IMG/VR virus record: IMGVR_UViG_3300022851_000003
DNA length: 59,477 nucleotides
Reading direction: 5' to 3' (one strand)
Source: a virus
Positions within the stretch are counted from its first letter, which is position 1, and the number at the start of each line of letters is the position of its first letter. This document shows positions 22,414-59,477 of the stretch, in pieces. Made by a program: the position numbers and the translations under genes. Below the pieces are notes generated by a model, which saw only the letters and a list, made by a program, of their open reading frames with translations, was not told the origin of the DNA and did no database searches.

Positions 22414-23091
22414 TTAGTCTTCCGCTCGCGACCACATATCGCAAGCGTTCACAAAATCCGGTATCCACAGGCTAAAGCTACGACCTCGGTTCATTAACGC
22501 AATCGCGCGGGACGCATGGTAGATGTCGGGCCTCAATGTTCTCTCGGCGCCCATCGTAGTCCATGGCACCTCCACTGCGTAAGTCTCGCAATGAGATCGC
22601 TTGATCGCTTTCTCCGACCCAGTCTCGAACATCTTCCAGAATGGATGATTGTCTCGAACCGGGAACGCGTACGTGATCGCTGGAATCACCTTTGTTTTCA
22701 GTTCACGACGGTTCCAGTGAATCAAAAAGAAGCAAGCCGAACCGAACGACGCACGTTCGTACATGAACTTCAGTTGACGTGACCTCGCCTTTCGCATCTC
22801 AATGCGATACTTACTCAAGTCGAAACTGGCTTGGCTACAAACCTTCGCATCGAAGACAACTTCTTGCTGAGGTGTTCCGAACACGCCCTGGTAATCCGGC
22901 AACGATGCGATGAGTCTCGCACGAACTGACCCATCAGGAAACCTCTGCATCGGCACCGCAAACACACCTGGTTTATCGACTGCCATCGCCCGCTCTTGCT
23001 TCAACCATGATAATCGCGGATCGATCAAATCTTGGAAGCCGGTTCCGGTTAGATGATCTTCGCAAGTGACAAGTGGTTCTGTCTCCATCAT
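22414..23091 (-). CDS. hypothetical protein
   Basis: 225-aa ORF in the same operon as the methyltransferase. Confidence 0.5.
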   Translation of the reverse strand: MMETEPLVTCEDHLTGTGFQDLIDPRLSWLKQERAMAVDKPGVFAVPMQRFPDGSVRARLIASLPDYQGVFGTPQQEVVFDAKVCSQASFDLSKYRIEMRKARSRQLKFMYERASFGSACFFLIHWNRRELKTKVIPAITYAFPVRDNHPFWKMFETGSEKAIKRSHCETYAVEVPWTTMGAERTLRPDIYHASRAIALMNRGRSFSLWIPDFVNACDMWSRAED

Positions 23092-26109: not shown

Positions 26110-26673
26110 TTAGAATTTCTTCCCGCCATCGGCCAACCGATGCTCTGCCTTGTGGTCGGCACGCTGCGCATTGAACGCCATCTTCTCCCGGTAGGCTCCT
26201 TCCAGATCCAATCCGTGACCGCCGCAGTAATCCAGAATGCGAATCACCGCGTCGGCCATCTCGACCTCTTCCATCTTGCGGTGCGGGAGCTTGTCATCCA
26301 TCAAGTCTTTGCGAGCTCCTTCCATCGCCTCGGCGATCTCGCTGACGATCAACATCATCTGCTCGCCTCTGTTGCGTTCGATCCGCTCCCCGGTCTTGGG
26401 ATCGTGCCACCATTTCAAGTTGGCTTCATGAGCCTCGGCCGCGTAGTCATTGAGAGTCATTCCCAGTTCTTCTTCCGATGCAACGTCTACGACACACTGC
26501 TGGCAAACAAAGTCGTATCCATCCCCGTAATCGTGATAGGGCTTGATCCGCCGCATCTCGTCTTCGTATTGGCACCGACCGCAGTTTCGGCACGTCCTAA
26601 TAGGTACGTCGCCGTCGATGTCGCTCGGCATACGACCGGGGCTTGCCAATCGTTTCTCTGGGATTGAATTCAT
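26110..26673 (-). CDS. MazG-like nucleotide pyrophosphohydrolase with N-terminal zinc ribbon
   Basis: EVEMADAVIRILD...AYREKMAFNAQR helical NTP-PPase motif; CRNCGRC...CQQC at N-terminus. Confidence 0.55.
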   Translation of the reverse strand: MNSIPEKRLASPGRMPSDIDGDVPIRTCRNCGRCQYEDEMRRIKPYHDYGDGYDFVCQQCVVDVASEEELGMTLNDYAAEAHEANLKWWHDPKTGERIERNRGEQMMLIVSEIAEAMEGARKDLMDDKLPHRKMEEVEMADAVIRILDYCGGHGLDLEGAYREKMAFNAQRADHKAEHRLADGGKKF

Positions 26674-27264: not shown

Positions 27265-28233
27265 TTAATCCTTCTTGGCTAGCTCGTTGAGCAACTCGCC
27301 CAACTGCTTGCTTTCCGCCGGGCTCAAATCTTCATCGCCATCGAACTCGCCGCCGATCTCGATCAACGCGTCGTGACTCGATGCGGACAGGAGACGACGT
27401 TCGTACGATGCGAATGCTTCGCTCTTGCCGTCCGCTGATTCGGCGATCAGTGGCGATTCTTCTTGCATCTCTGTCGACAAGTCCAAACCGCTTCCCATGT
27501 CGCCGAGTTTGCGTCGTTGAATCCCGGTCGATCGGACGTGTCCTTCAAACACAACATCCTCGTCGTCCTTCTCAAACGCATCGCGAATCTCTGCCGACAA
27601 TGGCAACCACTTGGACACACGACGGAACACCGTTTTTTTAGCCATTTCGCTCCAATCGGTTTTCCATGGCCCGTTGTTGCCAGACTTGGACCGATTGCGG
27701 ATTGCCTCAACGGCATCCTTGGACATGACCTCGCACTTGGGTTCGCGGTCCTTCATTCGGACTTCGCAATACACCGCGATCACATCACCCTCGCTTTCCG
27801 GCTTGTCCTCGTCCCGTCGCAAATACCACGGGACATGATCGGCCACGATGCCTTTGCTGTACTCAAACAGGTCGCCTTCATGGACAACGTCGGCATGGAT
27901 CGACGACACAACACCGGATCGGTACGCCAGTTCCACCAATCCCTTGTAGTCAATGATGAGCTGGCAAGTGGTTCCATAGGGAATCAAGTGCGCCCTGCGA
28001 CCATCGGGCTCGAGTCCCCATTGGCTCAAGCTCATCATCGCCTCGAAGAACGAAGCCTGAGAACACTGGGCCAGTTTGGGAGTGCGGGTCAGTGCCGTAA
28101 TAGCAACCCGCACCATCCGCTCGGGCGTCATGTGGTCAGGGAGTATCTTGGCGATCTCGTTCTTAAAATGTTCACCCGAAAGATGATCGCGAATCGTTGG
28201 GGCGGACTTCGCAATTTGTTTGTCTTGACTCAT
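27265..28233 (-). CDS. recT: RecT-family single-strand annealing protein
   Basis: FKNEIAKILP...RMVRVAITALTRTPKLAQC...GLEPDGRRAHLIPYG...IIDYKGLVELAYRSG matches the RecT core. Confidence 0.8.
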   Translation of the reverse strand: MSQDKQIAKSAPTIRDHLSGEHFKNEIAKILPDHMTPERMVRVAITALTRTPKLAQCSQASFFEAMMSLSQWGLEPDGRRAHLIPYGTTCQLIIDYKGLVELAYRSGVVSSIHADVVHEGDLFEYSKGIVADHVPWYLRRDEDKPESEGDVIAVYCEVRMKDREPKCEVMSKDAVEAIRNRSKSGNNGPWKTDWSEMAKKTVFRRVSKWLPLSAEIRDAFEKDDEDVVFEGHVRSTGIQRRKLGDMGSGLDLSTEMQEESPLIAESADGKSEAFASYERRLLSASSHDALIEIGGEFDGDEDLSPAESKQLGELLNELAKKD

Positions 28234-28282
28234 ATCAATTTGATTTCTGTGGAAAGGAAGATTAGTTCGTCTTAGGTCGGAT

Positions 28283-29290
28283 TCAGCTTGCCTCCCATTC
28301 TTTCTTGTAGTTCAGGTAATTCGGCATTGGCAGCGACAACACATCTCCGTAATGTTCGTGCTTCCAGATACCGCTCGACTCGCATCGACGCAGACCACGG
28401 AACGCCTTCTCGATCTCTTCGACCGCTTGATCGATCCAAGCCGGTTCCAATTCGTAGACCTCCACGCGATAAGGTTTCTTTTTCTCAACGCAGACGAAGT
28501 GAAACGGAACCTCGCGACCCAGCAACGCGTTGACCATGCTGCCGTACAAGACTCGTTGCCGGGCATACCCGAAGTCGGCGACCGCGTTGGCAAACCCTTT
28601 CGGTGATGCACTCCGCACGGTCTTCAAGTCGGCAACGAAACCGCCCATCGCCGTCTCGCTATATCGATCCAACTTGCATCGCGTCAGAATGCCGGTGCCC
28701 GCGTGCTCGCCGATCAACGGAACCTCGCTTTCACCTTCACCGAACAGCAGACGATTGGCCGAGTCGTGAGCACGCAAGGCGTCCTCCATGTCACGAAGCT
28801 GATCGTACGTCTCGTTCGACGTGACAACCTGGCCCTCGGGAACAACGACCGACGATCGAACCTTTTGCTCGAGCTGATCGAACTCCTCGCTTTTCATCAA
28901 CACGCTGCCCTTATGCAACTTGGCCCAATCCGTGTAAGGCTTGCCACGGCAATAACCTTGCTCGTTCAACACATGATCGGGAATCCGAGTCGCGATCCGA
29001 AACTTCGAGGCGATCTTCAAATACTCATTACGCGAAACCCCGGTCACTTCGGGATCCAGCACGGTCGACGTTTGCAGCCCACCCTCGAGCGTCATCTCAT
29101 GAAGGGCGGTGCCGAGCAATCTATCCGGCGTATCGCCACTGGGTTCGATCAGACCCGTGTTGTAAAGACCGTCGTACAGAGCCGGGTCATCGAGGAACCT
29201 GCTCATCTTCGAGTTACTGACGCCTGGCCCAGCGTGATACTCTTCGTTGGTGCCAGCATCAAAACGTTCAATAGCGGTGAACTGAATCAC
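28283..29290 (-). CDS. RecE/YqaJ-like PD-(D/E)xK exonuclease
   Basis: N-terminal EEYHAGPGVSNSKMSRFLDDPALY typical of exonuclease VIII-like proteins; directly upstream of recT; GTG start overlaps csrA stop. Confidence 0.6.
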   Translation of the reverse strand: MIQFTAIERFDAGTNEEYHAGPGVSNSKMSRFLDDPALYDGLYNTGLIEPSGDTPDRLLGTALHEMTLEGGLQTSTVLDPEVTGVSRNEYLKIASKFRIATRIPDHVLNEQGYCRGKPYTDWAKLHKGSVLMKSEEFDQLEQKVRSSVVVPEGQVVTSNETYDQLRDMEDALRAHDSANRLLFGEGESEVPLIGEHAGTGILTRCKLDRYSETAMGGFVADLKTVRSASPKGFANAVADFGYARQRVLYGSMVNALLGREVPFHFVCVEKKKPYRVEVYELEPAWIDQAVEEIEKAFRGLRRCESSGIWKHEHYGDVLSLPMPNYLNYKKEWEAS

Positions 29291-29466
29291 TTATCATTAC
29301 TTTCATTCTTGGGTTGGGTTTGAATAATGTCATCCCGATGGATGTCGATGGTCCGATCCGCGTCGATACCGATACGAACCTTGTCGCCACGAATGTCAAC
29401 GACAACGACCTTGATGTCCTTGCCAATCATGATGGCTTCACCAATGCGTCTACTAAGAACCAACAC
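29287..29466 (-). CDS. csrA: CsrA/RsmA-family RNA-binding regulator
   Basis: VLVLSRRIGEAIMIGKDIKVVVVDIRGDKVRIGIDADRTIDIHRDDI aligns with CsrA ([46 protein letters not shown]); GTG start 6 nt after GGGAG. Confidence 0.7.
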   Translation of the reverse strand: MLVLSRRIGEAIMIGKDIKVVVVDIRGDKVRIGIDADRTIDIHRDDIIQTQPKNESNDK

Positions 29467-29509
29467 GCCACACTCCCTTTGGTGTTGAAGAACAGGACTT
29501 TCAAAACAT

Positions 29510-29594
29510 TCGAGGCGATCGGAATCGAACCGACGCACGCCACCTTTCCGCAAACGCTTCTTAAATGGCCGCTCTACCAGTGAGCTACGCCTCG
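29510..29594 (-). tRNA. tRNA-like element with non-canonical anticodon region
   Basis: Acceptor CGAGGCG/CGCCTCG, D-arm GCTC-ACTGGTA-GAGC, T-arm GTCGG-TTCGATT-CCGAT; a 4-bp stem with a 23-nt loop replaces the anticodon arm. Confidence 0.4.
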
Positions 29595-29703
29595 ATGGGT
29601 CACAATGGGGTGGCAAATCCCCGGTTCCTACCTTTCGGTAACGTCGCTTGCTTCACCACGACGCGCCGCCATGCCTATCTACAAATCCTTGATTGGTTCG
29701 ACC

Positions 29704-30043: not shown

Positions 30044-30266
30044 AGGCCGAAGCCTTCAAAAGTTGAGTTGTCGACCGCACGAGTGGAAGATTAAGCGAGC
30101 GGCTGCGTGATTCCAGATCGGTGACCACGGACAATCACCGGCACCCGGCTAGCCAAGGATGGCGACGGCGCACCGAGGCTGACCGCAGGTAAAAGTTTCG
30201 GATTTCTTTGCAAACCGACAAATATCCATTTCCCCCGACTCAGGTGTCTCGATCCCCATCCATGTC

Positions 30267-30290
30267 GTGGTCACCAAATTGGTCACCAAA
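30267..30290 (+). repeat. candidate integrase arm-type site (GGTCACCAAA x2)
   Basis: GTGGTCACCAAATTGGTCACCAAA; second copy at 30516-30539. Confidence 0.45.
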
Positions 30291-30463: not shown

Positions 30464-30515
30464 CTTATAAGAAATGTTTCACTTTTCAAAACCAATCAAA
30501 GTCAGGAAGACTCCC

Positions 30516-30539
30516 GTGGTCACCAAACTGGTCACCAAA
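30516..30539 (+). repeat. candidate integrase arm-type site, copy 2
   Basis: GTGGTCACCAAACTGGTCACCAAA overlapping the integrase 3' end. Confidence 0.45.
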
Positions 30540-31706
30540 TCACGATTGTTTGTACGGCGATTCATCGAAGTCGATCTTCCCTTGCAGATCACCGACGTAG
30601 AATTTCCGCGTCGTTGTCTCGCTCGAATGCCGCAGGATCTCCTGGCACAGTTGGATAGGCATCCCACGCAGGCTCCATCGCGTGACCATGCTCGACCGGA
30701 AGTGTTTGGCCGTGGCCGTCTTCGGTGGCGACCCGGGTTCGGCGATCACCTCGGCCTTGGCTCCGATCGCGGAGATCAGCTTGGACAGAGCGGTTCGGTC
30801 TTTCACTTCGCCGGTCTCGCAACGCGGCTGGTAAATCGCTTCCGTCCGATCCGCCCGCTCCCGCAGGTGCGATGCGAAGTCGTTGGTAATCCTGGCGACC
30901 TGCGCACGCCGGTTCTTCTGGGCGGAAGTCCACGACATCATCGGTGTCGGCGTGTCGAGTCCGATCGGGTAATGCCAGTCACGGCGGGTTGCGTGCATCC
31001 CCAACGGCTCTCGCATCCGACAACCACTGAGCCAAAGAGCTTCCAGGTATTCCTGAACACTCGCCGCCGACCGGGATCCAACCAGGCCCGGGCAAACGTC
31101 CTGCATCTTCCGCAGCGATTCCTCACTGATCGGGATCAACCGCATCGCAGGAAGGTTCTGCTCTTGTCGGCCACGTCTTCGATTCGGCGGCATGTATCGC
31201 ATCAACTCCAGGGAAGCCGCCCACGAAAGACCGCTTCGGAGCGTTGCCATGTAACTCGGGATCGATCCGACCGCGATCGGCTTAAAGCCATCAATCCCCC
31301 GTCGAAGCGCAGTTTCCACCGAGGCGAGGAACAGAGGGGACACGTCCGAAAGAACGAACTCCCCTTGAATGTCCCGGCCCGCAACGGCATCGACGCGTTT
31401 ACAGACGGCAGACCACTTGTATCGGTTGTCGCTCGATGTGTCACTGAGATGGTCAGTCAGGTAGCGATCGCAGAAACGATCCCACGTCCATCCCTCGTTC
31501 CCCGAATTCAGCTTGGAATTCAGTTTGCTCTGAAGCTCGTCGGCCAGTTTATCGGCCGCTCGCTTCGATCTCTTGGAACGGGTGATGATTTCGGTCTTCT
31601 GGGTCTTAACAGACCGCGAGCCGAAGGGCCGCCACTTCAAGTAGTAGCAGCCCTTCGACGATTTCCAAAACGCGCTCACCCGCACAGTGGGCGCACAATG
31701 ATTCAT
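30540..31706 (-). CDS. int: tyrosine integrase
   Basis: C-terminal catalytic region KHFRSSMVTRW ... LRHSSETTTRKFYV (HxxR, H, Y); next to tRNA-derived att core. Confidence 0.8.
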   Translation of the reverse strand: MNHCAPTVRVSAFWKSSKGCYYLKWRPFGSRSVKTQKTEIITRSKRSKRAADKLADELQSKLNSKLNSGNEGWTWDRFCDRYLTDHLSDTSSDNRYKWSAVCKRVDAVAGRDIQGEFVLSDVSPLFLASVETALRRGIDGFKPIAVGSIPSYMATLRSGLSWAASLELMRYMPPNRRRGRQEQNLPAMRLIPISEESLRKMQDVCPGLVGSRSAASVQEYLEALWLSGCRMREPLGMHATRRDWHYPIGLDTPTPMMSWTSAQKNRRAQVARITNDFASHLRERADRTEAIYQPRCETGEVKDRTALSKLISAIGAKAEVIAEPGSPPKTATAKHFRSSMVTRWSLRGMPIQLCQEILRHSSETTTRKFYVGDLQGKIDFDESPYKQS

Positions 31707-31981
31707 GGGGTTTTCGACGATTCCTTTGTCCGAGATGCCGCGCCCGACTTCCGCCGACGCTCGGCCTTAGCTTCCACTGTATCCACTTTGGTCGCGCCGA
31801 TGACCGCATTCTTGAAGTCCAGACCCAGAACCATTAGGCATCCTTCCCAGGGTTCGGAGTGGACACATTGCTCGCGAACGAATCGCTTCACCTCGGCCAT
31901 CGACTTCCCGAGGATCTCCCGTAGTTCATCGCAGGTGTATAGAACGTCGTCTTCAATTGCTCTAAATCGGGCTTTTGCCAT
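31703..31981 (-). CDS. excisionase-like DNA-binding protein
   Basis: ORF 31703-32026; ATG at 31981 gives MAKARFRAIEDDVLYTCDELREILGKSMAEVKRFV; stop overlaps int start. Confidence 0.4.
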   Translation of the reverse strand: MAKARFRAIEDDVLYTCDELREILGKSMAEVKRFVREQCVHSEPWEGCLMVLGLDFKNAVIGATKVDTVEAKAERRRKSGAASRTKESSKTP

Positions 31982-32129
31982 TTCAAATAATCCTTGACTT
32001 AGCCGCTGGCAGGCACTATCGTGCATCCATACCGGTAACGGCCACCCTCACTGGGTTGGTTTGTAATCTGGAAATAGCTGATTGGGAACTTTCTTAGGGT
32101 ATAACAATCAGCGACGAAAACTTGGAACA

Positions 32130-33632: not shown

Positions 33633-34060
33633 TTACGAGTTCTTGGCGAGTGCCTCGTCGGTAGTGGATTTGCCAGCGTTCACTGCTTGCTTGGCCTTCT
33701 CCACGCGATAGCTCGGCACGTTCAATTCGATGCTCACGCTGTGATGCACCAACAAGCTGCATGTCGTGAAGAGAACACTGCGTCCCGATAACACCAACTG
33801 CTCCGCCAACGCACATAAGGCATGGCTCTTCCCCGAGCCCGGTTTGCCGAACAGCAGAAGATTCTCTCGGCGATCCAAGAACGATCCCAGGAGATTCCCA
33901 GGAATACTTATCCACAATTGCTGCAGCGGTTTGAGTAGGCGAATCGTTGGATCTGAGCGTCGGTAGCGTGTTCGGAATTGCGCTTGTGGAAAATATTCTT
34001 GCGAGAATCGGAATTGACTTGCTGCAACGAGCTCGCGTAACGTCTCGCCAGACGTTTGAC
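33633..34060 (-). pseudogene. DnaC/IstB-like AAA+ ATPase fragment
   Basis: LLLFGKPGSGKSHALCALAEQLVLSGRSVLFTT (Walker A) but only about 55 aa follow and no Walker B; N-terminal region also short. Confidence 0.4.
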
Positions 34061-34107
34061 ACTTTGTCAGACGCAAACGCAATCCCGATAACCTAAAGGA
34101 TCGGATT

Positions 34108-35061
34108 ATGAAAGTTGCTGAATTAGACCTGTGTGGTGGCGTACGCGCTGCTTTTCCGTTTGCCTGCCCTTGGCGAACTGACCGGGAGTTACCTGAGACA
34201 ATGCCGCAGGGCTCGGTGGTGCGGCGATTGGAACCGTTTGACGATGGCGATGATGCCATCGTTGGCGATGATACCAACGATGGCATCATAACCGCGGGGC
34301 GCAAGCACGATAGGACGGGGCGTGATGATGCGCGGGGCGTCGGTGATGATTCGGAGCGATACGCAGCTCTGGCGGACGTGCTGGGTGATGATGACGCGAC
34401 GATGGATGAGCTGTGCGCCGCATTCCTCAGCGCATCGCGGGACGCTGTGCGTGGTGCCCTGGACGATGCGGAATCGGCCCTGCTTGCGGAGTCGTTCCAA
34501 GAGACCCTGCCCGCGCTCGAGAAGGCGTTGAAGCGATACTATCATAACAGAACCGGTAATGTCGACGATGCGGTGTCTTGGTGCGTGTCCGAGCTGTATA
34601 CGAGCGTGGTCGATGCGGTGTTGCGGGGTCGTCTTGCAGTCCCGGCCAATGCTAGCCAATGGATCGGCAGCGCTCGCAAAATTCGAGGTGGCTATTGGAG
34701 CTCCAACCAGATCGTGATAGATGGAATGCCCGTAGCGCTGTTCGGGTGTGATGACACGGCTAACGATCACTACGAAAGTAGCCACCTCGATAGCGATGAC
34801 ACAATCCGCGTCTCTCGCCTGCGTCTGGATAACGAGCAGTTTGCTAAACATCTCGTTTCGTTGTACGAACTCGGTGCGCAGTGTGACGACGCACCGGGCT
34901 GGGTAGTCGAATCCCTTTGCCTGCTAGTGGAGCATCCTACCGCTACGCAGTCAGAATACGCCGCACAACGTGGAGTCACGGTGGCATGGTGGAAGCGGTC
35001 GCTAGTCGACATCCGCAAAGCAATCCGGTTCGGCGCGTTGCTAGGCGTATTGGATTGCTAA
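34108..35061 (+). CDS. hypothetical acidic protein
   Basis: 317-aa ORF with AAAGGA RBS; followed by a strong terminator. Confidence 0.5.
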   Translation: MKVAELDLCGGVRAAFPFACPWRTDRELPETMPQGSVVRRLEPFDDGDDAIVGDDTNDGIITAGRKHDRTGRDDARGVGDDSERYAALADVLGDDDATMDELCAAFLSASRDAVRGALDDAESALLAESFQETLPALEKALKRYYHNRTGNVDDAVSWCVSELYTSVVDAVLRGRLAVPANASQWIGSARKIRGGYWSSNQIVIDGMPVALFGCDDTANDHYESSHLDSDDTIRVSRLRLDNEQFAKHLVSLYELGAQCDDAPGWVVESLCLLVEHPTATQSEYAAQRGVTVAWWKRSLVDIRKAIRFGALLGVLDC

Positions 35062-35192: not shown

Positions 35193-35666
35193 TCAACGGT
35201 TCAGTTGAGCCTTGACTCGATCGCCCATCGTTGATGCCGATTTAGCGGGCGTCTTGGCCTGCTTCGCGGGTTGAGCGGCCGCCGACGCCTCGTTTGACGG
35301 CGCCCCCCCCTGCGATGATATGAACTGGGCGAACATTGCGAGCATCTCGGCCGGCATGGCCGGCATGGCCGGCATGGCAACTGTCGGCGCTTCCACTGTC
35401 GGCGCTTCCACTTTCGGCGCTTCCACTTTCGGCGCGGCCTGCTGTGCCGTGGCTGCGTCCATCGCGTCGAGCATCTTTTGGAACGTCTTAGCGTCGCCAA
35501 GAATCGCGTGCAATTCGTCGCGATAGATGGAGCGGAAGCGCCCCCGGGCACCAGCCTGCAATTGCAGAACTGGTGTAGCATCGGATCGTCCACCGAACGT
35601 GGTGAGCTGTGCTGTAAAAGTCGTTTTGCCATGGACGACTTCCGAAATGATCTGATTCGTGGTCAT
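35193..35666 (-). CDS. hypothetical protein with internal tandem repeats
   Basis: 157-aa ORF containing APKVEAPKVEAPTVEAPTVAMPAMPAMPA. Confidence 0.5.
   Translation of the reverse strand: MTTNQIISEVVHGKTTFTAQLTTFGGRSDATPVLQLQAGARGRFRSIYRDELHAILGDAKTFQKMLDAMDAATAQQAAPKVEAPKVEAPTVEAPTVAMPAMPAMPAEMLAMFAQFISSQGGAPSNEASAAAQPAKQAKTPAKSASTMGDRVKAQLNR
35351..35440. repeat. in-frame tandem repeats (9-bp x3 and 15-bp x4)
   Basis: CGGCATGGC x3 then GTCGGCGCTTCCACT x4 inside the CDS. Confidence 0.6.
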
Positions 35667-35793
35667 TGTGATTCTCCAGTTTGTGAATCAAGTGAACGTC
35701 TTGCCCCGGTCTGTCGCCGGGTTCGTTTCAAGGTGCCGAGGGGGGTGGTTGGTCATGGATGCGTTGCGATGCGAACGCGATACGTCTATCGAA

Positions 35794-35833
35794 ATCCGCC
35801 AGTCGCGTTAAATCGCAATCCGTCAGTCGCGTT
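35794..35833 (+). promoter_or_regulatory. operator-like direct repeats in divergent intergenic region
   Basis: ATCCGCCAGTCGCGTT and ATCCGTCAGTCGCGTT spaced 24 bp apart between divergent operons. Confidence 0.35.
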
Positions 35834-38673: not shown

Positions 38674-39309
38674 TCAACCGCGAGTATCGCACAGAAGCGA
38701 GACCGAGTAGATCACCGGTGTGACCGCCGTCCCCGTGGCCGCGTCGTTACAAGCGACCGCGATCCGCACGTCCAAGAGATCGCCAGGGTCAACGCCACTG
38801 GCATCAATGGTGAAGTCGACATCGGCCGGCGTCAGGCTGTTCATCGTCGCCGCTGCGGTCGTTACCAACTCCGCGCTGACACTGCCCGCCCCATCGCTCT
38901 TACGCGCCTCACAGTCCACCGTGCAGGTCGTGTCGGCAACGGTGGTTTCCATCGCACATCGCAGCCGCAACTGGATCGTCTCGCCGTCCTGATAGTGATC
39001 CGGCACCGGGATCTGGAACCTTGCGTACCGGGTGGTCGCCCCGGCTGCCTTGAGGTCTCCCGCTAGGAGTTCTGGGCAGTTAGTGCCAAACGATCCCGCG
39101 TCGATTCCCAGGTCATCGGATGCCGCTGAAGCTGGCAAGAGAGAGGTGATCGCATCGTGAACGCGACCATTGGTCAGTGCAACAGGGATCTCCTGCAACA
39201 CCCTTTGCGCTAGCTTCTCGACGCCGATCGCAGCCTGGGAACTGATACATCGATCAGTGACAAAGCTGTCAGGAAGGATAATTGTGGTTGACTCGACAAT
39301 GGTGGTCAT
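38674..39309 (-). CDS. hypothetical protein
   Basis: ORF 38674-39342 on opposite strand, fitting the gap between plus genes; ATG at 39309. Confidence 0.4.
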   Translation of the reverse strand: MTTIVESTTIILPDSFVTDRCISSQAAIGVEKLAQRVLQEIPVALTNGRVHDAITSLLPASAASDDLGIDAGSFGTNCPELLAGDLKAAGATTRYARFQIPVPDHYQDGETIQLRLRCAMETTVADTTCTVDCEARKSDGAGSVSAELVTTAAATMNSLTPADVDFTIDASGVDPGDLLDVRIAVACNDAATGTAVTPVIYSVSLLCDTRG

Positions 39310-39408
39310 TGAACTGATCTCAAATACGGGTAACTGATCCACTTAGAGGGTAAAGCGATGCCATATCGTATCGCCTCGAATCGAAAAACCAAGTCTATTT
39401 ATCGGCAG

Positions 39409-39430: not shown

Positions 39431-39488
39431 TTCGACCGAGCAGCACACCGCTGCCAACCATGTTCCTTTCACTTCACTGGAGAATCTT

Positions 39489-40559
39489 ATGTCCGCTGCA
39501 ACATCGAGCGTCGTCTCACAAAAACGACTCGCCACCTTCCTGCGTTTGTTCAAGCCAAAGACGTGCCGTATCTCGTCCGACGGCGGATTGATCTGGGCCT
39601 TCCATCCCATCGAAGGCAGCCCGTGTCTCGTCGCACCCGCCATCTGCATCGGCGAAGGTGACGCCAAGGGGGCCATCGAGATCGACGTGAAAAAGTACGG
39701 CAAGTTCATCCGCTCATCGGGAACCAATGCCGACATCGCCGCGACCTACGATGGCAAGTCCCTGTCACTGGAGTCCGACAAGCTCGGCAGCATGGAGTTC
39801 GAGAAAGACGCCAAGCACGTCAGTGAGTACGCACCACTGGATGAACGGGGCGAATACCTCGTCACCATCCCGGCCGACGTGGTGAAGCAGATGGCGGGCT
39901 ACGCTGACCGAACTGATTCCGAGTCCAGACGCTACGCATTGAGCGGGTTCCTCGTCGAGCAAGAACACTTCATCGCCACCGATGGTCGTCGGTTACTGGT
40001 AGGCAAGATCGACCACCTCGGGGCTCAGGAGTTTGCCATCGGCGCCAAGGAAAACAAACCGGGAGACGAACTGGTTCCGTTTTCGGTCAATGTCCCCGCC
40101 GATCTGGTCCGCTACGCTGCCATGCTGGGCGAGTCGATCGACGTGTTCCAACAACGGCTGATCGCCGGCGACGTGGTGGCGGCTCCGGTCGATGGGCGCT
40201 TCCCAACCTGGCGGCAAGTGCTCGTGGAAACCGACACCGAAACGCCAGTCGACATTGACGATATGATCCAACGATGCGATAAGCAACTCGCCATTTCCAA
40301 GATCAACAATGGGGAGGAGATGGGGCTGGAACTGGTAATGAGCCACGACGATGAGGAATTCAAGGCCACGTTTGACTGCCGTTACCTGGCCGCCGCAATC
40401 AAGGGGCGATCCGCTGCGACGATCAACTACGCCAGCGACGGGGTTCAGTCGAAATACAACGAACGGTGCTTTGAATCGCCCATTGTGGTGACCAACGCCG
40501 ACGAGCCGAACGTCCAAGAGGTTATCATGGCAATGTCCCGCAATCCGAAGCGGGAATAA
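39489..40559 (+). CDS. dnaN: DNA polymerase III beta sliding-clamp homologue
   Basis: RRYALSGFLVEQEHFIATDGRRLLV aligns with E. coli beta RYYLNGMLFE...ATDGHRLAV; GRFPTWRQVL aligns with FPDYRRVLP; length 356 aa. Confidence 0.7.
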   Translation: MSAATSSVVSQKRLATFLRLFKPKTCRISSDGGLIWAFHPIEGSPCLVAPAICIGEGDAKGAIEIDVKKYGKFIRSSGTNADIAATYDGKSLSLESDKLGSMEFEKDAKHVSEYAPLDERGEYLVTIPADVVKQMAGYADRTDSESRRYALSGFLVEQEHFIATDGRRLLVGKIDHLGAQEFAIGAKENKPGDELVPFSVNVPADLVRYAAMLGESIDVFQQRLIAGDVVAAPVDGRFPTWRQVLVETDTETPVDIDDMIQRCDKQLAISKINNGEEMGLELVMSHDDEEFKATFDCRYLAAAIKGRSAATINYASDGVQSKYNERCFESPIVVTNADEPNVQEVIMAMSRNPKRE

Positions 40560-41062: not shown

Positions 41063-41593
41063 ATGGACATTCCCAATCTAATCAATCGGATGCGTAGCGG
41101 TGACACACTCGCTGCCCGTGGATTGATCGAGGCACAACGACACGGACGGGCGCTGCGATTGTATCCCGACGGACGCAACGGACCCAACGACGAAGGCGTC
41201 GCACCAATCCTGCTGGAACAAACCGAAAACCTGCTCGTCCATCTGCGACTAGGGCGACCCTGCATTGTCGTTCTCCGACGCGACCAACTCGGCCCGGTCT
41301 TGATGTTCCTGTTCCGCTGCTCTGCCCGTATGATGGCGAACCTAGATCGGTACGATGAATCATCGATCACGCCAGGCATCGGATACCAGACCGGATGCAC
41401 CAACGATCCATGGAAAATCGTGATTTCCTTTTCACCACACGGGCGAATCGATTACGATCTCGGCATCGAGGACTGCATCAGTATCATTACTTCATGGCTT
41501 ACGTTCATCGACCAGCACGAGTGGGAAATCGACGACTGCTCGCTGACCGACGAAGAATACATGGCCCTTTCCCATATCGCCAATCATGTGTGA
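41063..41593 (+). CDS. hypothetical protein
   Basis: 176-aa ORF. Confidence 0.45.
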   Translation: MDIPNLINRMRSGDTLAARGLIEAQRHGRALRLYPDGRNGPNDEGVAPILLEQTENLLVHLRLGRPCIVVLRRDQLGPVLMFLFRCSARMMANLDRYDESSITPGIGYQTGCTNDPWKIVISFSPHGRIDYDLGIEDCISIITSWLTFIDQHEWEIDDCSLTDEEYMALSHIANHV

Positions 41594-47995: not shown

Positions 47996-48586
47996 GTGCC
48001 CCGCCCTGCTGACGAACCTGCTTTCACGCCCGAGCATCCGCCGGGCGACGAAAAGTTCTGCACGCTATGCGGGGAAGAAAAACCCATCGACGAATTCCAC
48101 GTCGATGAGTCGGCTCATGACGGACGCAAGTCCAATTGCAAGGCGTGCCGATCACTTCAGCACGCCGAAGATGTGGAGTCTAAGGTCGACCCCCGCCTCG
48201 CCAAGATTGAAGAGGCAGGACTCGAAGCGCTCGACGCCTTCGCGGGTGGCGGATCATTCAACCCGCACACCCAAGAGCTGATCGACGGGTTTATGAGATT
48301 CCTGGGCGGTCACTACGGCCTGGTGAAACTGACGATGGCCCACTACCACGCGGCCAAACCAGGCAGTGCCGAGCGAGGGAAGACACTCGATAAAATCTAC
48401 CGGCTGATCGCCGCTGAGGACAAGCAGGATGGCTCGCTCGACAAACTTGACCGACGCCAACTCGAAGCCCTCGTCGTCAGCATCGGCACCAAAGCCGGGA
48501 TGCTGCCCAAGCCGAACGACACGCTGTCTCTCGATCACCCCGAAACCGTCAACGCGATCGCCCGTTCCAAAGGCGACGCACTATGA
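47996..48586 (+). CDS. zinc-ribbon protein (possible terminase small subunit)
   Basis: CTLCGEEK...CKAC; directly upstream of and overlapping the large terminase start. Confidence 0.35.
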   Translation: MPRPADEPAFTPEHPPGDEKFCTLCGEEKPIDEFHVDESAHDGRKSNCKACRSLQHAEDVESKVDPRLAKIEEAGLEALDAFAGGGSFNPHTQELIDGFMRFLGGHYGLVKLTMAHYHAAKPGSAERGKTLDKIYRLIAAEDKQDGSLDKLDRRQLEALVVSIGTKAGMLPKPNDTLSLDHPETVNAIARSKGDAL

Positions 48587-51441
48587 TTGACGACATCGAA
48601 TTCAGTGACATCGATCTTTCGACACACCTCGACACCGCCAACGAGATGCAGTCGGGCAGCGAAGCCAACGACTACGTGATCGACGAGTATCACCTGCACA
48701 AGATGCACTCCGCAGCGTCGGAGATCCAGCGCCGGGACATGGAGGCGATGCGGATCTATCGCCCCTCCAAAATCCAAGAGCAGTACCACGCATCCACTGC
48801 CAAGGAGACCGTGTTCGTTGCCGGGAACCAAATCGGCAAATCCATTGCCGGATACTCGGAAGACGGACGAGCTGCCGGTGGATGCGACCCGTACGGCAAG
48901 TACCCCGAGAAAGATGGCATCCTGGCCATCGTGGTCTACAAGGAATCGCAGATCAGGCTGAACACCTATCGGTATCTCCTCAAGCCCGGTGCGTTCGACA
49001 TCATCCAAGACGAAGAGACCGGCATCTGGAAACCCTATTATCCCTGGGTTCCCTCCGATGTTGCTCGCGCCGATCAACGGCGGCCCGCCCCACCGATCCT
49101 TCCACCGCGAATGATTAAGAGAATCCACTGGAAGTCCAAGATGGGCAACGTCCTGTCTCGGATCGACATGGAGAACGGTTGGGAGATTCACGTCTTCTCG
49201 TCGACCGCGAAACCAGATGCCGGGTTCCAAGCCGACCTCGTTCATATCGATGAAGACATCGCCAACGAAGAATGGTACGTCGAGATGATCGCCCGTCTCT
49301 CGATCCGCAAGGGACTCCTGCGATGGACCGCCCTACCGCTGTTCGATAACGACGCGCTGCCTCGTATCGTCGAACGGGCCGACGACGAAGCGGAGAAGCA
49401 CGCACGCGGCGGACCTGTGCCTACCACGACGGTCGTTCGCGGAACCATTTTCGATAACCCGTACCTGACCGACGATACCCGCGAAGAAAACATCAAGCGA
49501 TGGAAGGACGCGGGCGACGATGTCTACCGGCAACGTGCCCTCGGAGAACTCATCACCGACACGGTTCGGATGTACCCGACGTTCACGCCGGAAATCCATG
49601 CCGTCCAACGTTACGGCGAATCGCATCCTGAGTTGTTCGGCGAGTACCTTCGCACCCGTCGAATCCCCGACGATTGGTGTCTGAGATTGTTTGTTGACCC
49701 TGGGTTCTCCACCTGTGCCGCGTTGCTGTTCGCGACCCTGCGACCCGAGGGCGGCGACGACTCCGAACCAATGATTCACGTTGCTGTGCGTGAAATCTAT
49801 CGCCAGCAATGTGACGCCTCGATCTTTGCCCAACTCGCCTCGCAAACCGTTGGCGATCGATGGTTGCAAGCGATGGTCATCGACGCCCACGGTGGTCGAC
49901 TCACCGGCATCGGCGATGGTCGGCGTCCACAAGAGATCTACGAAAGCGAACTGGCCGAACGAAACGTCGTGTGCGTGGAGACCGGCTCTCGCTTCCGTGC
50001 TGGCTGCGACGACATCGTCTACCGGGAAACCGCACTGCGACAACGGTTGATCGTCTCGCCAGTCACCGGGCTACCGGAGTTTATGTACGACGAGGAGATG
50101 TGCCCGAACCTTGAAAAAGAAATGGTGCGGTTCCGAAAGCTGAGAACCCGTGGCGTCATCACCGATAAAGGCAACCGCAAAGCATTTACGCACGCTGTCG
50201 AGTGTTTCTGTGACCAAACCGAAGTCCTTACTGAAAGTGGCTGGAAGCGTTTTGCAGACGCCAGTATCAGCGACCGTTTAGCGACCGTGAACTTGGATAC
50301 CGATACGCTTGAGTTTCAGCATCCATCTCGAATTGTTGAAAGACCTCACAACGGACCGATGGTTCATGTTCACGCACAGAAGCTCAATGCGATGGTCACT
50401 CCTAATCATCGGATGGTTTACTACTCCGACACCGCAAGGCGAAAAAAGACAGGTCCATCTATCTGTTTCGCGGGCGACCTGTCTCCAAGCTATGCGTTAA
50501 AGCTGGCGGCAAAAAACTGGAACGCAGTTTCACCAAAGACATTCGTGCTGCCTGCGGTAGAACTGGATTCGCGACCAGGTAAGCCTGCCGAATTAAACAG
50601 ACTCGACTTCGCCCGGTTCATGGGATGGTACATCGCCGAAGGCTCTGCGGACAAAACAGTGCGTTGCCCTGGAAAGGGCTATCGCGTGTGCATTGCACAG
50701 AGAAAAGAACACGGCATCAACGCGATTCGCGAAATGCTTTCAAAGCTACCGTTTCATTTCGTTGTATCGGGCGACTGCTTCGTGATCTCCAACAAGCAAC
50801 TGTGGTCGTACCTTCGCCAGTTCGGAGACTGCTACACCAAGTTCGTTCCAGACTGGGTGCGACACGGAAGCAGAGAAGTCATCGAGTCGTTTATGGAAGG
50901 CGCTATGGCTGGCGATGGGTGGGTACAAAAGAACGCTCGACGATACGGAACCTCCAGCCCCCGCCTCGCCGACGACATCCAAGAACTATTCCTCAAACTC
51001 GGTTGTTCTGCATCTGTCACTGTTCGGTCGGCAGAGACGGCCGTGTCAAGGATGGTGAGAGGAAAGCCCTGCAAATCTACCTGTGATTTCTTCACGGTAA
51101 TCGAGAGGCTTGTTCCGAGCGTCCGCCTTAGTGACGCACACGACAAGCCGAATTTCAGCACAACGAACTACACCGGAAAGGTGTTCTGCGCAACCGTCCC
51201 CAATGGGACTCTTGTTGTAAGACGCAACGGCCAACCGCTCGTCGCTGGCAATTGCTATGAGTACGCAGCCGCCGACGAACTCAAGTACCACGCACCTCCC
51301 GCCCGTCGAACCCGCGAAACCCCCGGCGAACGTCGTGTTCGGATGTGGCGGGAACGCCAAGCGAAGCGACGAAAACAAATGGGTGGCGCTCTCGGCGTCA
51401 TCCATGGCGGCATCGACCTGTCTGCTCCCATGCCCACTTAA
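48583..51441 (+). CDS. terL: terminase large subunit interrupted by an intein
   Basis: P-loop-like VFVAGNQIGKS, Walker B-like ADLVHIDE, nuclease-like RLFVDPGFS and AMVIDAHGG; 350-aa intein in the C-terminal region. Confidence 0.65.
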   Translation: MIDDIEFSDIDLSTHLDTANEMQSGSEANDYVIDEYHLHKMHSAASEIQRRDMEAMRIYRPSKIQEQYHASTAKETVFVAGNQIGKSIAGYSEDGRAAGGCDPYGKYPEKDGILAIVVYKESQIRLNTYRYLLKPGAFDIIQDEETGIWKPYYPWVPSDVARADQRRPAPPILPPRMIKRIHWKSKMGNVLSRIDMENGWEIHVFSSTAKPDAGFQADLVHIDEDIANEEWYVEMIARLSIRKGLLRWTALPLFDNDALPRIVERADDEAEKHARGGPVPTTTVVRGTIFDNPYLTDDTREENIKRWKDAGDDVYRQRALGELITDTVRMYPTFTPEIHAVQRYGESHPELFGEYLRTRRIPDDWCLRLFVDPGFSTCAALLFATLRPEGGDDSEPMIHVAVREIYRQQCDASIFAQLASQTVGDRWLQAMVIDAHGGRLTGIGDGRRPQEIYESELAERNVVCVETGSRFRAGCDDIVYRETALRQRLIVSPVTGLPEFMYDEEMCPNLEKEMVRFRKLRTRGVITDKGNRKAFTHAVECFCDQTEVLTESGWKRFADASISDRLATVNLDTDTLEFQHPSRIVERPHNGPMVHVHAQKLNAMVTPNHRMVYYSDTARRKKTGPSICFAGDLSPSYALKLAAKNWNAVSPKTFVLPAVELDSRPGKPAELNRLDFARFMGWYIAEGSADKTVRCPGKGYRVCIAQRKEHGINAIREMLSKLPFHFVVSGDCFVISNKQLWSYLRQFGDCYTKFVPDWVRHGSREVIESFMEGAMAGDGWVQKNARRYGTSSPRLADDIQELFLKLGCSASVTVRSAETAVSRMVRGKPCKSTCDFFTVIERLVPSVRLSDAHDKPNFSTTNYTGKVFCATVPNGTLVVRRNGQPLVAGNCYEYAAADELKYHAPPARRTRETPGERRVRMWRERQAKRRKQMGGALGVIHGGIDLSAPMPT
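50203..51252 (+). mobile_element. intein with LAGLIDADG homing endonuclease
   Basis: Block A CFCDQTEVLTESG, block B TPNH, LAGLIDADG motifs FMGWYIAEGS and FMEGAMAGDG, C-terminal VAGN followed by Cys +1. Confidence 0.7.
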
Positions 51442-55469: not shown

Positions 55470-55690
55470 TCCAACTCCCTTGGCAAATCATTGCCGCGTC
55501 CATTGCGTTGTTCGGCCTGCATTTAATCATCGGCTACCTCCGCCGGACCAACTGCGACGAGCGGATCGAAGTTGCCAAGCGGCAACAGCACCGCGATTCG
55601 ATAAGCATCTATCGCGAAGCCTATCTGGCGGGATGGGTCCACGGGGACCAGGACTCAACCAAACTCACAGAGGAGATCGACCGTGCGTGA
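55466..55690 (+). CDS. small membrane protein (holin- or spanin-like candidate)
   Basis: 74 aa with N-terminal helix WQIIAASIALFGLHLIIGYL and charged C-terminus. Confidence 0.45.
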   Translation: MIQLPWQIIAASIALFGLHLIIGYLRRTNCDERIEVAKRQQHRDSISIYREAYLAGWVHGDQDSTKLTEEIDRA

Positions 55691-56927
55691 TTTTATCCTG
55701 ATTGTCTTGCTTTTTTTGCCGGTGCCTGTATTTGCGCAACCGCAGACGTCATTGGGTCGCATCTCGCAATCCAACATTGGCCGGCAGACCGACGCATCAA
55801 TCGGGCTAGTCCGGCTGAAGTCGGACCAACCGATCCCGGCGGCAGTGAGAGAGGCGGCGAAGTCAGTCTGCCGCGTGAATATCCGTGGCCGTGACGGCGG
55901 CGGTTACGCAGGATCGGGAACGTACATTGGCGAACGAACGATCGTCACAGCTCGGCATGTTGTCGCCGAAGGCGTTTTGACCACGACCACTGTTGACTTC
56001 GCAGGTCAGGTTTTCTCCGGTCGCGGATTCCTGGCGAACAAGACGGCCGATCAGTATTTGATTCAGATTGCCGAGACGCCCAACGTTCGGCCGATCCCGC
56101 TTGCCAGCCGACAGCCCGAACCGGGTGAAGTCGTCTTCGTCATGGGATTCGGCCACAACAAGTTTGACATTTGGTCGGCTCGTCTCACGTCCTACGGCTC
56201 AGCGGTTAGCCAACAAGACTCAGGGTTTTACACAGGCCGACGAAGCCGATCGGGCGACAGTGGCGGGGCGGTACTCAACGCGGCTGGCGAATACGTAGGC
56301 ACGATTTGGGGCGGAGGCAAGAACGACGCTGTTGCGGTCACGTACACACAGACTCGATCGTTTTTTCAGCGGTCAGGATTGCTCGGTCGATTGTTCGGCA
56401 GACGTGGCACGCCGGTGACCGAGGAGCAAACGATCACCGCAGGATGTTTCGGTGGCCAATGCACGCCACGCCCAAGACAACCATCACCGCAGCCATCGCC
56501 GCAGCCATCAACGAACGATCAAGGCTACGTGCCTGGGCCTGACTACTTTGGACAGCCGCCATCTAATCCGCCGGTGGACGCGCCGGCACCTTCTCTTGAT
56601 GTCGACGGACTGGTCGACGCGATCGCGGATCGAATCGGCACTCCGAAGTGTGAGTGTGATTGTGAATCAAAGCCGGGGGCACCTGGGCCGGTTGGCCCCA
56701 AGGGCGATGCCGGGCCACGCGGGCCGCCCGGTGATTCGGCAAGCATCACGCAAGAGCAACTCGAACAAGTTGCGGTCATGGTTCTTAGGCAGATGCCGAA
56801 GCCATCTCCGCAACGAGTCATGCTCGTCAATGGTGCAACCGGCAAAGTACTCGACGACGAAACATACCAAGATGGCGAACCGATCGTGATCGATTTCCAA
56901 AGGGTCATCAATGCCGCAACCAAATGA
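55683..56927 (+). CDS. secreted trypsin-like serine protease with collagen-like repeat
   Basis: Signal-peptide-like ILIVLLFLPVPVFAQP; His motif TARHV; Ser motif GDSGGAV; GAPGPVGPKGDAGPRGPPGD and QPSPQPSPQPS repeats. Confidence 0.65.
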   Translation: MRDFILIVLLFLPVPVFAQPQTSLGRISQSNIGRQTDASIGLVRLKSDQPIPAAVREAAKSVCRVNIRGRDGGGYAGSGTYIGERTIVTARHVVAEGVLTTTTVDFAGQVFSGRGFLANKTADQYLIQIAETPNVRPIPLASRQPEPGEVVFVMGFGHNKFDIWSARLTSYGSAVSQQDSGFYTGRRSRSGDSGGAVLNAAGEYVGTIWGGGKNDAVAVTYTQTRSFFQRSGLLGRLFGRRGTPVTEEQTITAGCFGGQCTPRPRQPSPQPSPQPSTNDQGYVPGPDYFGQPPSNPPVDAPAPSLDVDGLVDAIADRIGTPKCECDCESKPGAPGPVGPKGDAGPRGPPGDSASITQEQLEQVAVMVLRQMPKPSPQRVMLVNGATGKVLDDETYQDGEPIVIDFQRVINAATK

Positions 56928-59357: not shown

Positions 59358-59477
59358 ATAATGGCAGACTCAGTAAGAATCCAAATCATCCGAGACGACG
59401 TCGTCGTAGACGACTCATCGGCGGTCCTCGGATCAATGCAAGACGGGACCAAAGTGCTTGACGCAATGGTCGCCGCG
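59351..59477. repeat. terminal overlap copy 2
   Basis: Identical to 1-127. Confidence 0.95.

Follow-up and report, generated by a model that had tools for sequence, protein, structure and literature searches.

A predicted beta-clamp homolog with a conserved peptide-binding cleft and lost dimer-interface elements in a phage without a recognisable replicase

A 59,477-nucleotide stretch of viral DNA, IMG/VR record IMGVR_UViG_3300022851_000003 (referred to here as the window, meaning the whole stretch), carries at positions 39,489 to 40,559 a gene whose product is, by its sequence and predicted structure, a divergent homolog of the bacterial sliding clamp DnaN, the beta subunit of DNA polymerase III (Pol III). 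We call it the clamp gene. Three aspects of it are new. The protein belongs to a rare, unnamed lineage that is invisible to curated DnaN models. According to the alignments, this lineage has lost the hairpin of the dimer interface and the loop containing the DNA-contact residue R24, with the peptide-binding cleft strictly retained. Finally, the clamp gene is linked to the gene of a small serine recombinase in six of seven genomic contexts.

Results

The clamp gene encodes a predicted three-domain beta-clamp homolog

The initial annotation of the window had proposed a beta sliding clamp from two conserved DnaN motif regions. Both are present: IATDGRRL at amino acids (aa) 162-169 corresponds to VATDGHRL of Escherichia coli (E. 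coli) DnaN and DGRFPTWRQVL at aa 235-245 to DGRFPDYRRVL, and a single-sequence phmmer search of the PDB aligned query residues 53-286 collinearly with residues 58-287 of solved beta clamps (E about 1e-3). Among the PHROGs, family 947, 'DNA polymerase processivity factor', matched residues 56-349 (E=1.9e-8). The Pfam models DNA_pol3_beta, DNA_pol3_beta_2 and DNA_pol3_beta_3, to which the initial annotation had pointed as a check, gave no match to the protein even at E<=10, and the NCBIfam dnaN equivalog model TIGR00663 reached 15.6 bits, far under its cutoff of 137.65, covering residues 61-248 only. As the protein fails these curated models, it is not an ordinary DnaN, and its identity to cellular clamps is about 17%. 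Judged by the direct searches alone, the sequence similarity is weak, yet nearly full length.

A word-indexed search of 5.8 billion clusters returned only a cluster of 99% identity and one relative of 51% identity. An exhaustive HMMER search of 1.84 billion representatives yielded 110 proteins at E<=1e-3, and the 18 of them with E<=1e-10 and lengths of 320-376 aa were taken as the close family, to which the member counts below refer. The weaker matches were to DnaN-like proteins of the canonical kind, about 365-385 aa long. The close family can be aligned end to end and shares the motifs RYAL, ATDGRRL, GR(F/Y)PxW(R/Q)xV(I/L)P, and a C-terminal VIMPM. Pfam clamp domains matched at most two of its 18 members; in a mixed alignment of 33 sequences they matched 14-17, essentially the canonical ones. 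Curated DnaN models (Pfam, TIGR00663) thus miss whole phage clamp lineages. A profile of the 18 close members found beta clamps in the PDB at E=2.3e-20, and hhalign aligned the family profile with a canonical-clamp profile, in which E. coli DnaN was the reference row, at a probability of ~100% and E=1.2e-38 over 306 columns (E. coli 2-366).

The family appears in few places. When the family profile was used for another large homology search, no named members came up, and no relative of the clamp was found in GTDB genomes. In IMG/VR, no phage carrying a relative was found other than this same phage. Among 50,697 records of annotated phages the window had no nucleotide-level match, and the only tblastn match of the clamp protein was to the gp15 fragments of Bcep781 and Bcep43.

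The structure of the protein was modelled using AlphaFold2. An input of three sequences gave a predicted local distance difference test (pLDDT) score of 33, and the 33-sequence alignment was used instead, resulting in a pLDDT of 90.1 and a predicted template modelling score (pTM) of 0.89. A Foldseek search of the PDB with this confident model returned beta clamps only (E about 4e-20, probability 1.0, template modelling (TM) score 0.62-0.67), so the structure prediction that the initial annotation had foreseen came out in favour of a clamp. DSSP assigned the canonical order of secondary-structure elements to Domains I and II of the model, and to Domain III three strands ahead of helix alpha2'' and five behind it. 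The model differs from canonical clamps by an additional hairpin at aa 319-328; at aa 174-198, the window protein and the relatives closest to it have a further loop, which is of low confidence. The profile, hhalign, and fold results all extend over the full length, i.e., the similarity is not confined to a short segment lacking a three-domain architecture. Therefore, we conclude that the protein is, as far as alignments and model can tell, a three-domain beta-clamp homolog.

The peptide-binding cleft and the charge pattern are conserved

Functional residues of E. coli DnaN were mapped onto the family by a MAFFT alignment, and the mapping was confirmed by hhalign. The cleft set that was compared comprised E. 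coli R152, Y153, L155, T172, G174, H175, R176, L177, P242, V247, V360, M362, P363, and M364. Some of these are documented as cleft residues in PMC3335792. The others belong to the cleft in the peptide complexes of the E. coli clamp. The equivalents of the cleft residues were kept in 14-18 of the 18 members. In the window protein, R148, L151, G166, and M347 stand at invariant positions (18/18), T164 and R167 at positions kept in 16, P239 in 17, and V244 in 15 members. The equivalent of E. coli Y153 is Tyr or Phe throughout (18/18), and the proline equivalent to P363 is kept in all members but one, the window protein, which has Ala348 instead. Of the 11 near-invariant positions of the family, seven belong to the 21 of the cleft (hypergeometric P=2.5e-7). 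By these alignments the peptide-binding cleft is the best-conserved part of the family, which fits the use of host cleft-binding proteins.

The clamp protein is acidic, with an isoelectric point (pI) of 4.94 (4.8-5.5 in the family). The net charge is +8 over its six main helices and -23 over the remainder, a sign pattern shared by all 18 members. This pattern is the electrostatic signature of a clamp that encircles DNA. Kazlauskas & Venclovas (PMC3201878) associated a low pI with ring-forming, loader-dependent clamps and an elevated pI with non-ring clamps; by their criterion the pI of 4.94 places the protein with the former and not with basic non-ring factors. It does not fit the non-ring factors of the UL42/UL44-like or Bacillus phage 0305phi8-36 type, which combine an elevated pI with a basic DNA-binding face and can bind DNA directly, with no need of a loader.

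When compared with orthologs of 29-51% identity, the clamp gene showed ratios of nonsynonymous to synonymous substitution rates (dN/dS) of 0.30-0.41, at saturated dS, and is therefore under purifying selection. An intact clamp open reading frame (ORF) was found in relatives from many samples. One variant, P0006, is seemingly frameshifted. Its indel lies within a G4 run, and several genes of its contig contain scattered single-base indels, so a natural frameshift was rejected and the variant is most likely an assembly artefact. On the 60,063-bp sister contig L010 (JGI 3300028222), scattered single-base indels shorten several genes (clamp 333 aa, RecT 261 aa); these are probably assembly or sequencing errors, and the protein variants of this contig no natural frameshifts.

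The genome is complete and has no recognisable replicase

The window begins and ends with an exact 127-bp direct repeat (1-127 and 59351-59477), and sister contigs measure 59.5-60.2 kb, indicating a complete circular genome of about 59.35 kb. Its phage origin is borne out by genes for the terminase large subunit (TerL), the portal, a head-protein-like product, and the tail. No polymerase, helicase, primase, or clamp loader was found in the whole genome by Pfam, PHROGs, NCBIfam, PDB sequence search, tblastn, and motif scans. At the sensitivity of these scans, of which the motif scans covered the large ORFs, the initial annotation was right in recognising no DNA polymerase, helicase, or primase in the window, and since the genome is complete, the absence of a replicase extends to the phage genome as a whole. 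No AAA+ clamp loader was detected, the only convincing P-loops being those of TerL and of an IstB-like remnant.

This remnant, an IstB/DnaC-like P-loop ORF at 33633-34304 on the minus strand, was considered as a helicase loader and rejected. In it the P-loop GKPGSGKS is followed almost at once by the C-terminal SYR motif, and it represents an internally deleted IS21-type remnant and no functional AAA+ protein. The sister contig L011 matches the window at 100% identity as far as position 33887 and then diverges into 2.1 kb (L011 1-2147) containing the N-terminal part of a 768-aa Mu-transposase-C protein, reflecting either a mobile-element polymorphism or a chimeric contig. Replication by Mu-like transposition was rejected for the window, from which the Mu-transposase-C sequence is absent and which assembles as a circle.

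A proposed host-loaded clamp and the observations that weigh against it

The conservation of the cleft and the combination of an acidic protein with basic inner helices make a host-loaded ring clamp the most likely role. We give an even chance to the reading that the product is a functional beta-type clamp that is placed on phage DNA by the host clamp loader and tethers host Pol III or other cleft-binding proteins there. The homology, the three-domain fold, the cleft conservation, the charge pattern, the purifying selection, and the lack of recognisable replicase genes support it, as does the conserved location of the gene among the syntenic phages of the lineage. A beta-type clamp would have evolved for a long time inside the phage lineage. 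With no polymerase, helicase, primase, or clamp loader of the phage, its DNA would be copied by the host Pol III holoenzyme, and replication would probably start from recombination intermediates made by the RecT, exonuclease, and resolvase of the phage. The host clamp loader would open and load the phage clamp via the conserved hydrophobic cleft, the ring would close despite the deleted interface hairpin, and the loaded clamp would tether host Pol III alpha and possibly other proteins with clamp-binding motifs. The phage may benefit from an extra supply of clamps in burst replication, or from an escape from Hda and the regulatory inactivation of DnaA (RIDA), from clamp-targeting toxins, or from inhibitors. 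In the initial annotation, the phage was presumed to use the host replisome and perhaps to redirect host polymerase or repair factors, which are likewise putative roles.

Host proteins are also the simplest reading of the clients, as terminal clamp-binding-like motifs were not enriched in the phage proteome (four observed against 4.6 +/- 2.3 in shuffles). One such motif, QLPVF at residues 3-7, would occur in the divergent upstream ORF 38674-39342 on the minus strand if a GTG start were used (N-terminus MDQLPVFE...). It was rejected as a clamp-binding client: the GTG has no Shine-Dalgarno sequence, gene callers start the ORF at an ATG that lies 11 codons further on, and the relatives show no conservation of it.

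Several observations weigh against a host-loaded ring. The loop of nine residues that contains R24 is deleted in all 18 members; in the clamp-DNA structure of E. coli, R24 is a DNA contact. In the canonical head-to-tail homodimer, the Domain III beta4'' strand (E298-D307) and I272/L273 lie against the Domain I beta8 strand (R103-L108), and the interface is made up of the hairpin residues E298, E300, E301, E303, E304, and D307 and of I272/L273 with K74, R103, and R105 (PMC12269063). The segment equivalent to E. coli 287-312, i.e., the beta3''-beta4'' hairpin with the acidic interface strand, is deleted in 16 of the 18 members, on which the HMM, MAFFT, and hhalign alignments agree. The equivalent of I272 is A, K, T, or D, that of L273 is R, E, I, or K, and that of L108 is not hydrophobic, while the equivalents of all three are kept in the canonical set. 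The sole interface residue retained is the equivalent of F106 on the edge of Domain I, which is F, I, Y, or L in 17 of the 18. As aligned, the family thus does not have the canonical head-to-tail dimer interface. The three-domain homology behind the sliding clamp of the initial annotation stands, and the losses of the Domain III hairpin and the R24 loop had gone unseen in it.

Within the cleft, the window protein has A348 at the otherwise conserved proline, and population variants change the cleft residue M349 to Ile. An identity of about 17% also seems low for a fit to the loader and polymerase of a host. Furthermore, more than 20 orphan ORFs without any match could hide a replicase too divergent to be recognised. 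As to the host, there is a faint hint only: the sole genome-side relative of the portal, of 40% identity, is found on L016 (JBIKVL010000704.1), a 3.3-kb contig in a metagenome-assembled genome of the Pirellulaceae (Planctomycetota). Finally, a clamp cannot distinguish viral from cellular DNA, as pointed out by Kazlauskas et al. (PMC4889955), which leaves the selective advantage unclear.

The clamp gene is linked to a serine recombinase gene

The phage contigs that encode family members of 27-51% identity are syntenic: DUF932 is followed by small ORFs, the clamp gene, further small ORFs, the gene of the serine recombinase (274-310 aa), head genes, and the terminase and portal genes. In six of the seven contexts examined, the recombinase gene comes after the clamp gene on the strand of the latter, and the seventh contig is too short to judge. 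This synteny was seen in L001, L006, L009, L014, and L015, with a gap of only 20 bp in L014. The linkage may reflect lineage synteny or a functional link. No convincing inverted repeats of an invertible switch were found around the recombinase gene.

A 176-aa protein encoded downstream of the clamp gene is also kept in relatives (Table 1); it had no match in Pfam, PHROGs, NCBIfam, or the PDB. An ORF of ~107 aa directly after the clamp gene was rejected as a conserved neighbour, since it is conserved by length only and is not homologous to the 108-aa ORFs of the relatives. Promoter and terminator scans gave results at chance level.

Other features of the genome

The genes are organised in three blocks. 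The clamp gene lies in a plus-strand block at ~35.9-44.4 kb, with DUF932, small orphans, the conserved 176-aa orphan, and the 274-aa serine recombinase. A minus-strand block at ~21-34 kb encodes PAPS-reductase-like, DNA methyltransferase, RecU-like resolvase, MazG, RecT, ExoVIII/DUF3799, CsrA, and probable tyrosine integrase proteins. The late block runs on the plus strand from ~44.9 kb through the ends of the window to ~19.6 kb and contains the genes for a head-protein-like product, an HNH nuclease, TerL, the portal, a trypsin-like/collagen protein, the tail, and a 1498-aa orphan. The coordinates of the individual features are listed in Table 1.

Table 1. Features of the clamp gene and of the rest of the window.
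Feature	Position	Strand	Remarks
Clamp-like gene	39489..40559	+	ATG-to-stop ORF, 356 aa, pI 4.94; predicted divergent three-domain homolog of bacterial DnaN (PolIII beta)
Shine-Dalgarno GGAG	39479..39482	+	Read from the sequence; 6-nt spacer to the ATG of the clamp gene
Domain I	39489..39833	+	aa 1-115; predicted canonical beta-alpha-beta-beta-beta x2; 9-residue loop with E. coli R24 deleted
Domain II	39849..40187	+	aa 121-233; RYAL 148-151, IATDGRRL 162-169, low-confidence inserted loop aa 174-198 (DSSP, pLDDT)
Inter-domain linker motif DGRFPTWRQVL	40191..40223	+	aa 235-245; part of peptide-binding subsite 1 (E. coli P242, R246, V247; cleft residues per PMC3335792)
Domain III	40230..40526	+	aa 248-346; predicted non-canonical; beta3''-beta4'' hairpin missing between aa 286 and 289; extra hairpin aa 319-328
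C-terminal cleft motif VIMAM	40521..40535	+	aa 345-349; family consensus VIMPM, E. coli VVMPM
176-aa protein	41063..41593	+	Downstream of clamp; kept in 3 relatives: 53%, 37%, 27% identity (blastp among loci)
Small serine recombinase, 274 aa	43614..44438	+	Pfam Resolvase E=2e-33
RecT-like annealase	27265-28233	-	PHROG 148 E=9e-73; Pfam RecT on sister contigs
ExoVIII/DUF3799-like exonuclease	28283-29290	-	PHROG 412 E=7e-53; Pfam DUF3799 on sister contigs
Holliday junction resolvase (RecU-like)	22414..23091	-	PHROG 843 E=3e-10; weak Pfam RecU on sister contigs
Terminase large subunit	48583-51441	+	952 aa; LAGLIDADG-type intein at about aa 460-920
CsrA homolog	29287-29616	-	Pfam CsrA E=1e-18; N-terminal extension of ~50 aa; adjoins exonuclease and RecT genes
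388-aa probable tyrosine integrase gene	30540-31706	-	Weak: Pfam Phage_integrase E=1e-3; XerA-like E=1e-4; on 11 contigs
317-aa orphan ORF, hypervariable hotspot	34108-35061		87 mismatches (91 per kb) against 98.9%-identical L010
Tandem-repeat cluster	35349-35435, 35788-35833		9-mer x3.3, 15-mer x3.7, 24-mer x2; junction of minus block and DUF932-led plus block
1498-aa orphan	15129-19625	+	End of tail module; no Cys; rich in Ala, Gly, Arg, Asp
Trypsin-like serine protease domain, then short collagen-like repeat	55683-56927	+	Pfam Trypsin E=1.6e-13; inside structural block
PAPS-reductase-like protein overlapping DNA methyltransferase	21043-22388	-	PHROG 424 E=2e-34; PHROG 954 E=7e-71
MazG-like pyrophosphatase	26110-26673	-	

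The RecT-like annealase and the exonuclease (27265..29290) are likely to form the phage's own recombination module and a source of primed ends for replication. PAPS-reductase-like, methyltransferase, and MazG products may serve in DNA modification or in functions of the nucleotide pool. The TerL of the relatives measures 582-600 aa and has no intein; the intein region in the window matches inteins that unrelated phages have in their methylases, thymidylate synthase, and terminases.

Just 3' of the 388-aa integrase gene, TGGTCACCAAAY occurs four times; the copies form two pairs (30266-30290 and 30515-30539) that lie 249 bp apart and may be arm-type sites or attP. A 507-aa ORF on the plus strand (30474-31997) was rejected as a shadow ORF, as it was never gene-called and the 388-aa ORF on the opposite strand was found on 11 contigs. 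The hypervariability of the 317-aa orphan ORF stands out against 0-8 mismatches per kb to L010 in the other genes between 22.4 and 41.6 kb, and an 18-nt tandem repeat lies within this ORF at 34241-34284. The tandem-repeat cluster at the strand junction may have a regulatory role or act as an origin of replication. The 1498-aa orphan, for which Pfam, PHROGs, NCBIfam, the PDB, and annotated phages gave no match, probably belongs to the virion or serves in ejection.

Discussion

Alternatives to a host-loaded ring clamp

Having lost the R24 loop, the interface hairpin, and the hydrophobic residues of the interface, the protein may be a remodelled clamp that no longer closes as a canonical head-to-tail dimer. 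It could have a new closure geometry or oligomeric state, or be an open mimic that captures host delta and other clamp-binding proteins, and it may act with the linked serine recombinase. We consider this wider reading unlikely, with perhaps one chance in a handful of being right.

A use outside replication, with the clamp as a mobile DNA-tracking platform that couples late-gene transcription to replication or aids the serine recombinase or the 176-aa protein, seems rather improbable to us. The clamp gene lies in the middle-gene block directly upstream of the late structural operon of roughly 35 kb, the recombinase gene follows on the same strand in six of the seven contexts (20 bp away in L014), and the 176-aa orphan is kept nearby. 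Clamps have a precedent in phage late transcription, namely T4 gp45 with gp33/gp55 and Mu MuC with the host clamp (PMC12867686), and such a role would explain why a polymerase-less phage retains a clamp. However, neither a sigma-like nor a Mor/MuC-like factor was detected, no inverted repeats for an invertible switch were found, the 176-aa protein and the recombinase have no terminal clamp-binding motif, and the proteome is not enriched in such motifs. Common descent in a single syntenic lineage can account for the linkage. Moreover, a role in transcription would still require loading, so that it overlaps with the host-loaded clamp.

We attach a similarly low probability to an open clamp mimic, monomeric or capping host beta protomers, whose cleft would sequester delta, Hda, repair polymerases, or MutS/MutL, and the same holds for the proposed effect, a disturbance of host replication control or mismatch repair. 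The loss of the interface hairpin and hydrophobic interface residues next to a strictly conserved cleft is what such a protein would show. The affinity of delta is far higher for monomeric than for dimeric beta (PMC12269063), and a mimic that stays monomeric would thus trap it effectively. Other phages encode truncated beta-like fragments, e.g., the 193-aa gp15 of Bcep781 (PMC3201878), and mimicry would say what a stand-alone clamp is for. On the other hand, a phage without a replicase needs the host loader and Pol III and would harm itself by trapping them. The basic inner helices in an acidic protein, present in 18 of 18 members, argue that DNA still passes through the channel. All three domains are under purifying selection, while a decoy consisting of the cleft would need no Domain I, and the F106-equivalent position is F, I, Y, or L in 17 of the 18.

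Quite improbable, in our view, is a replacement clamp, where the phage inactivates the host clamp, as Staphylococcus phage Twort does with Gp168, or the host has clamp-targeting toxins, and the divergent phage clamp is insensitive. The extreme divergence outside the cleft (about 17% identity) is in line with it, the phage inhibitor Gp168 has been solved in complex with the beta clamp (7evp), and an inhibitor could be among the products of the window's many small orphan early genes. No candidate inhibitor was identified, nor does any homology suggest one, the case is purely circumstantial, and the idea is a refinement of the host-loaded clamp and no separate mechanism.

That the gene is a functionless, decaying relic of a captured host dnaN, as the failure in curated DnaN models, the loss of two structural elements, and the seemingly frameshifted P0006 might suggest, is effectively ruled out by dN/dS of 0.3-0.4 across orthologs down to 29% identity, by intact ORFs in relatives from many samples, and by conservation focused on the cleft, with a confident model and a P0006 frameshift that is probably an artefact.

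Comparison with known clamps

Compared with DnaN (E. coli 1MMI/2POL, Enterobacter 6AMQ, Thermotoga 1VPK), the window clamp has a predicted three-domain fold and full-length collinear homology and keeps the equivalents of R152, Y153, L155, T172, G174, R176, L177, P242, V247, V360, and M362. The family shares with DnaN the acidic pI, the basic inner helices, and the C-terminal V-I/V-M-P-M motif. In contrast, the window clamp has only about 17% identity, no match to Pfam DNA_pol3_beta, and a score far under the TIGR00663 cutoff. It has no R24 loop, no beta3''-beta4'' hairpin, and no conserved I272/L273/L108, and has gained the hairpin at aa 319-328 and the inserted loop at aa 174-198. Unlike dnaN, its gene belongs to a phage and does not stand beside dnaA and recF.

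Phage-encoded beta clamps are common in structure databases. Those annotated in Ralstonia phage Heva, Caulobacter phage Sansa, and Gordonia, Nodularia, and Achromobacter phages (BFVD models) resemble our model in Foldseek (E 1e-17 to 1e-12, TM about 0.6) but share 9-16% identity and gave no tblastn match to the window clamp. According to Kazlauskas & Venclovas 2011 (PMC3201878) and Kazlauskas et al. 2016 (PMC4889955), a viral processivity factor goes together with a polymerase in 85% of cases. A phage clamp without a phage polymerase, which the initial annotation had singled out, is nevertheless a known category: stand-alone PolIII-beta homologs have been described in phages without a polymerase, and their role was called an open question (PMC3201878, PMC4889955). 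The window clamp is like them in being of the beta type, in its low pI, and in the lack of a recognisable polymerase or clamp loader. Some stand-alone cases were ascribed to horizontal transfer because of high similarity to host proteins (PMC3201878). The window lineage is much more divergent than such recent host captures, has the deletion in the Domain III interface, and has no named or annotated member in the sources searched. Mycobacteriophage Corndog (Cluster O), which has an annotated beta clamp, is a possible stand-alone example (PMC4351075).

The only annotated phage sequence that matched in tblastn is gp15 of Bcep781/Bcep43 (phrog_3007), with 27% identity over aa 102-245 of the window clamp; PHROG 3007 matched aa 136-251 (E=8e-7). 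This protein belongs to a class of truncated fragments of about 190-250 aa that represent part of a clamp only. It has 193 aa and is encoded inside a head-gene cluster, whereas the window clamp has 356 aa and three domains. Bcep781 gp15 (NC_004333.2 10433-11014; L004 9067-9648) is labelled 'RusA-like Holliday junction resolvase' in RefSeq and in phrog_3007. The depositors' note on Bcep781/Bcep43 gp15 reads 'DNA Pol III b subunit fragment', and the RusA-like label is probably a propagated mis-annotation.

T4 gp45 and PCNA are two-domain trimers, a class to which a three-domain protein does not belong, and T4 gp45 is always accompanied by a polymerase and a loader of the phage (PMC4889955). Mu, with MuC, borrows the host clamp instead of encoding one; together with T4 gp45 it provides a precedent for the use of clamps by phages outside replication (PMC12867686).

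Implications

Stand-alone viral clamps are an unexplained exception to the rule of Kazlauskas et al. that a clamp implies a polymerase. The lineage described here offers a clean test case, with a complete small genome, no recognisable replicase, a cleft that is kept and ring-closing elements that are lost, and a recombinase partnership. The oligomeric state of the protein and its clients would tell whether the phage boosts or re-routes the host replisome, couples other processes to DNA, or deploys a decoy. To a specialist a stand-alone phage clamp is in itself unsurprising, and it is the remodelled interface that makes the question of its function directly testable. If true, non-canonical closure or mimicry would be the first mechanistic answer to why polymerase-less phages carry a PolIII-beta homolog.

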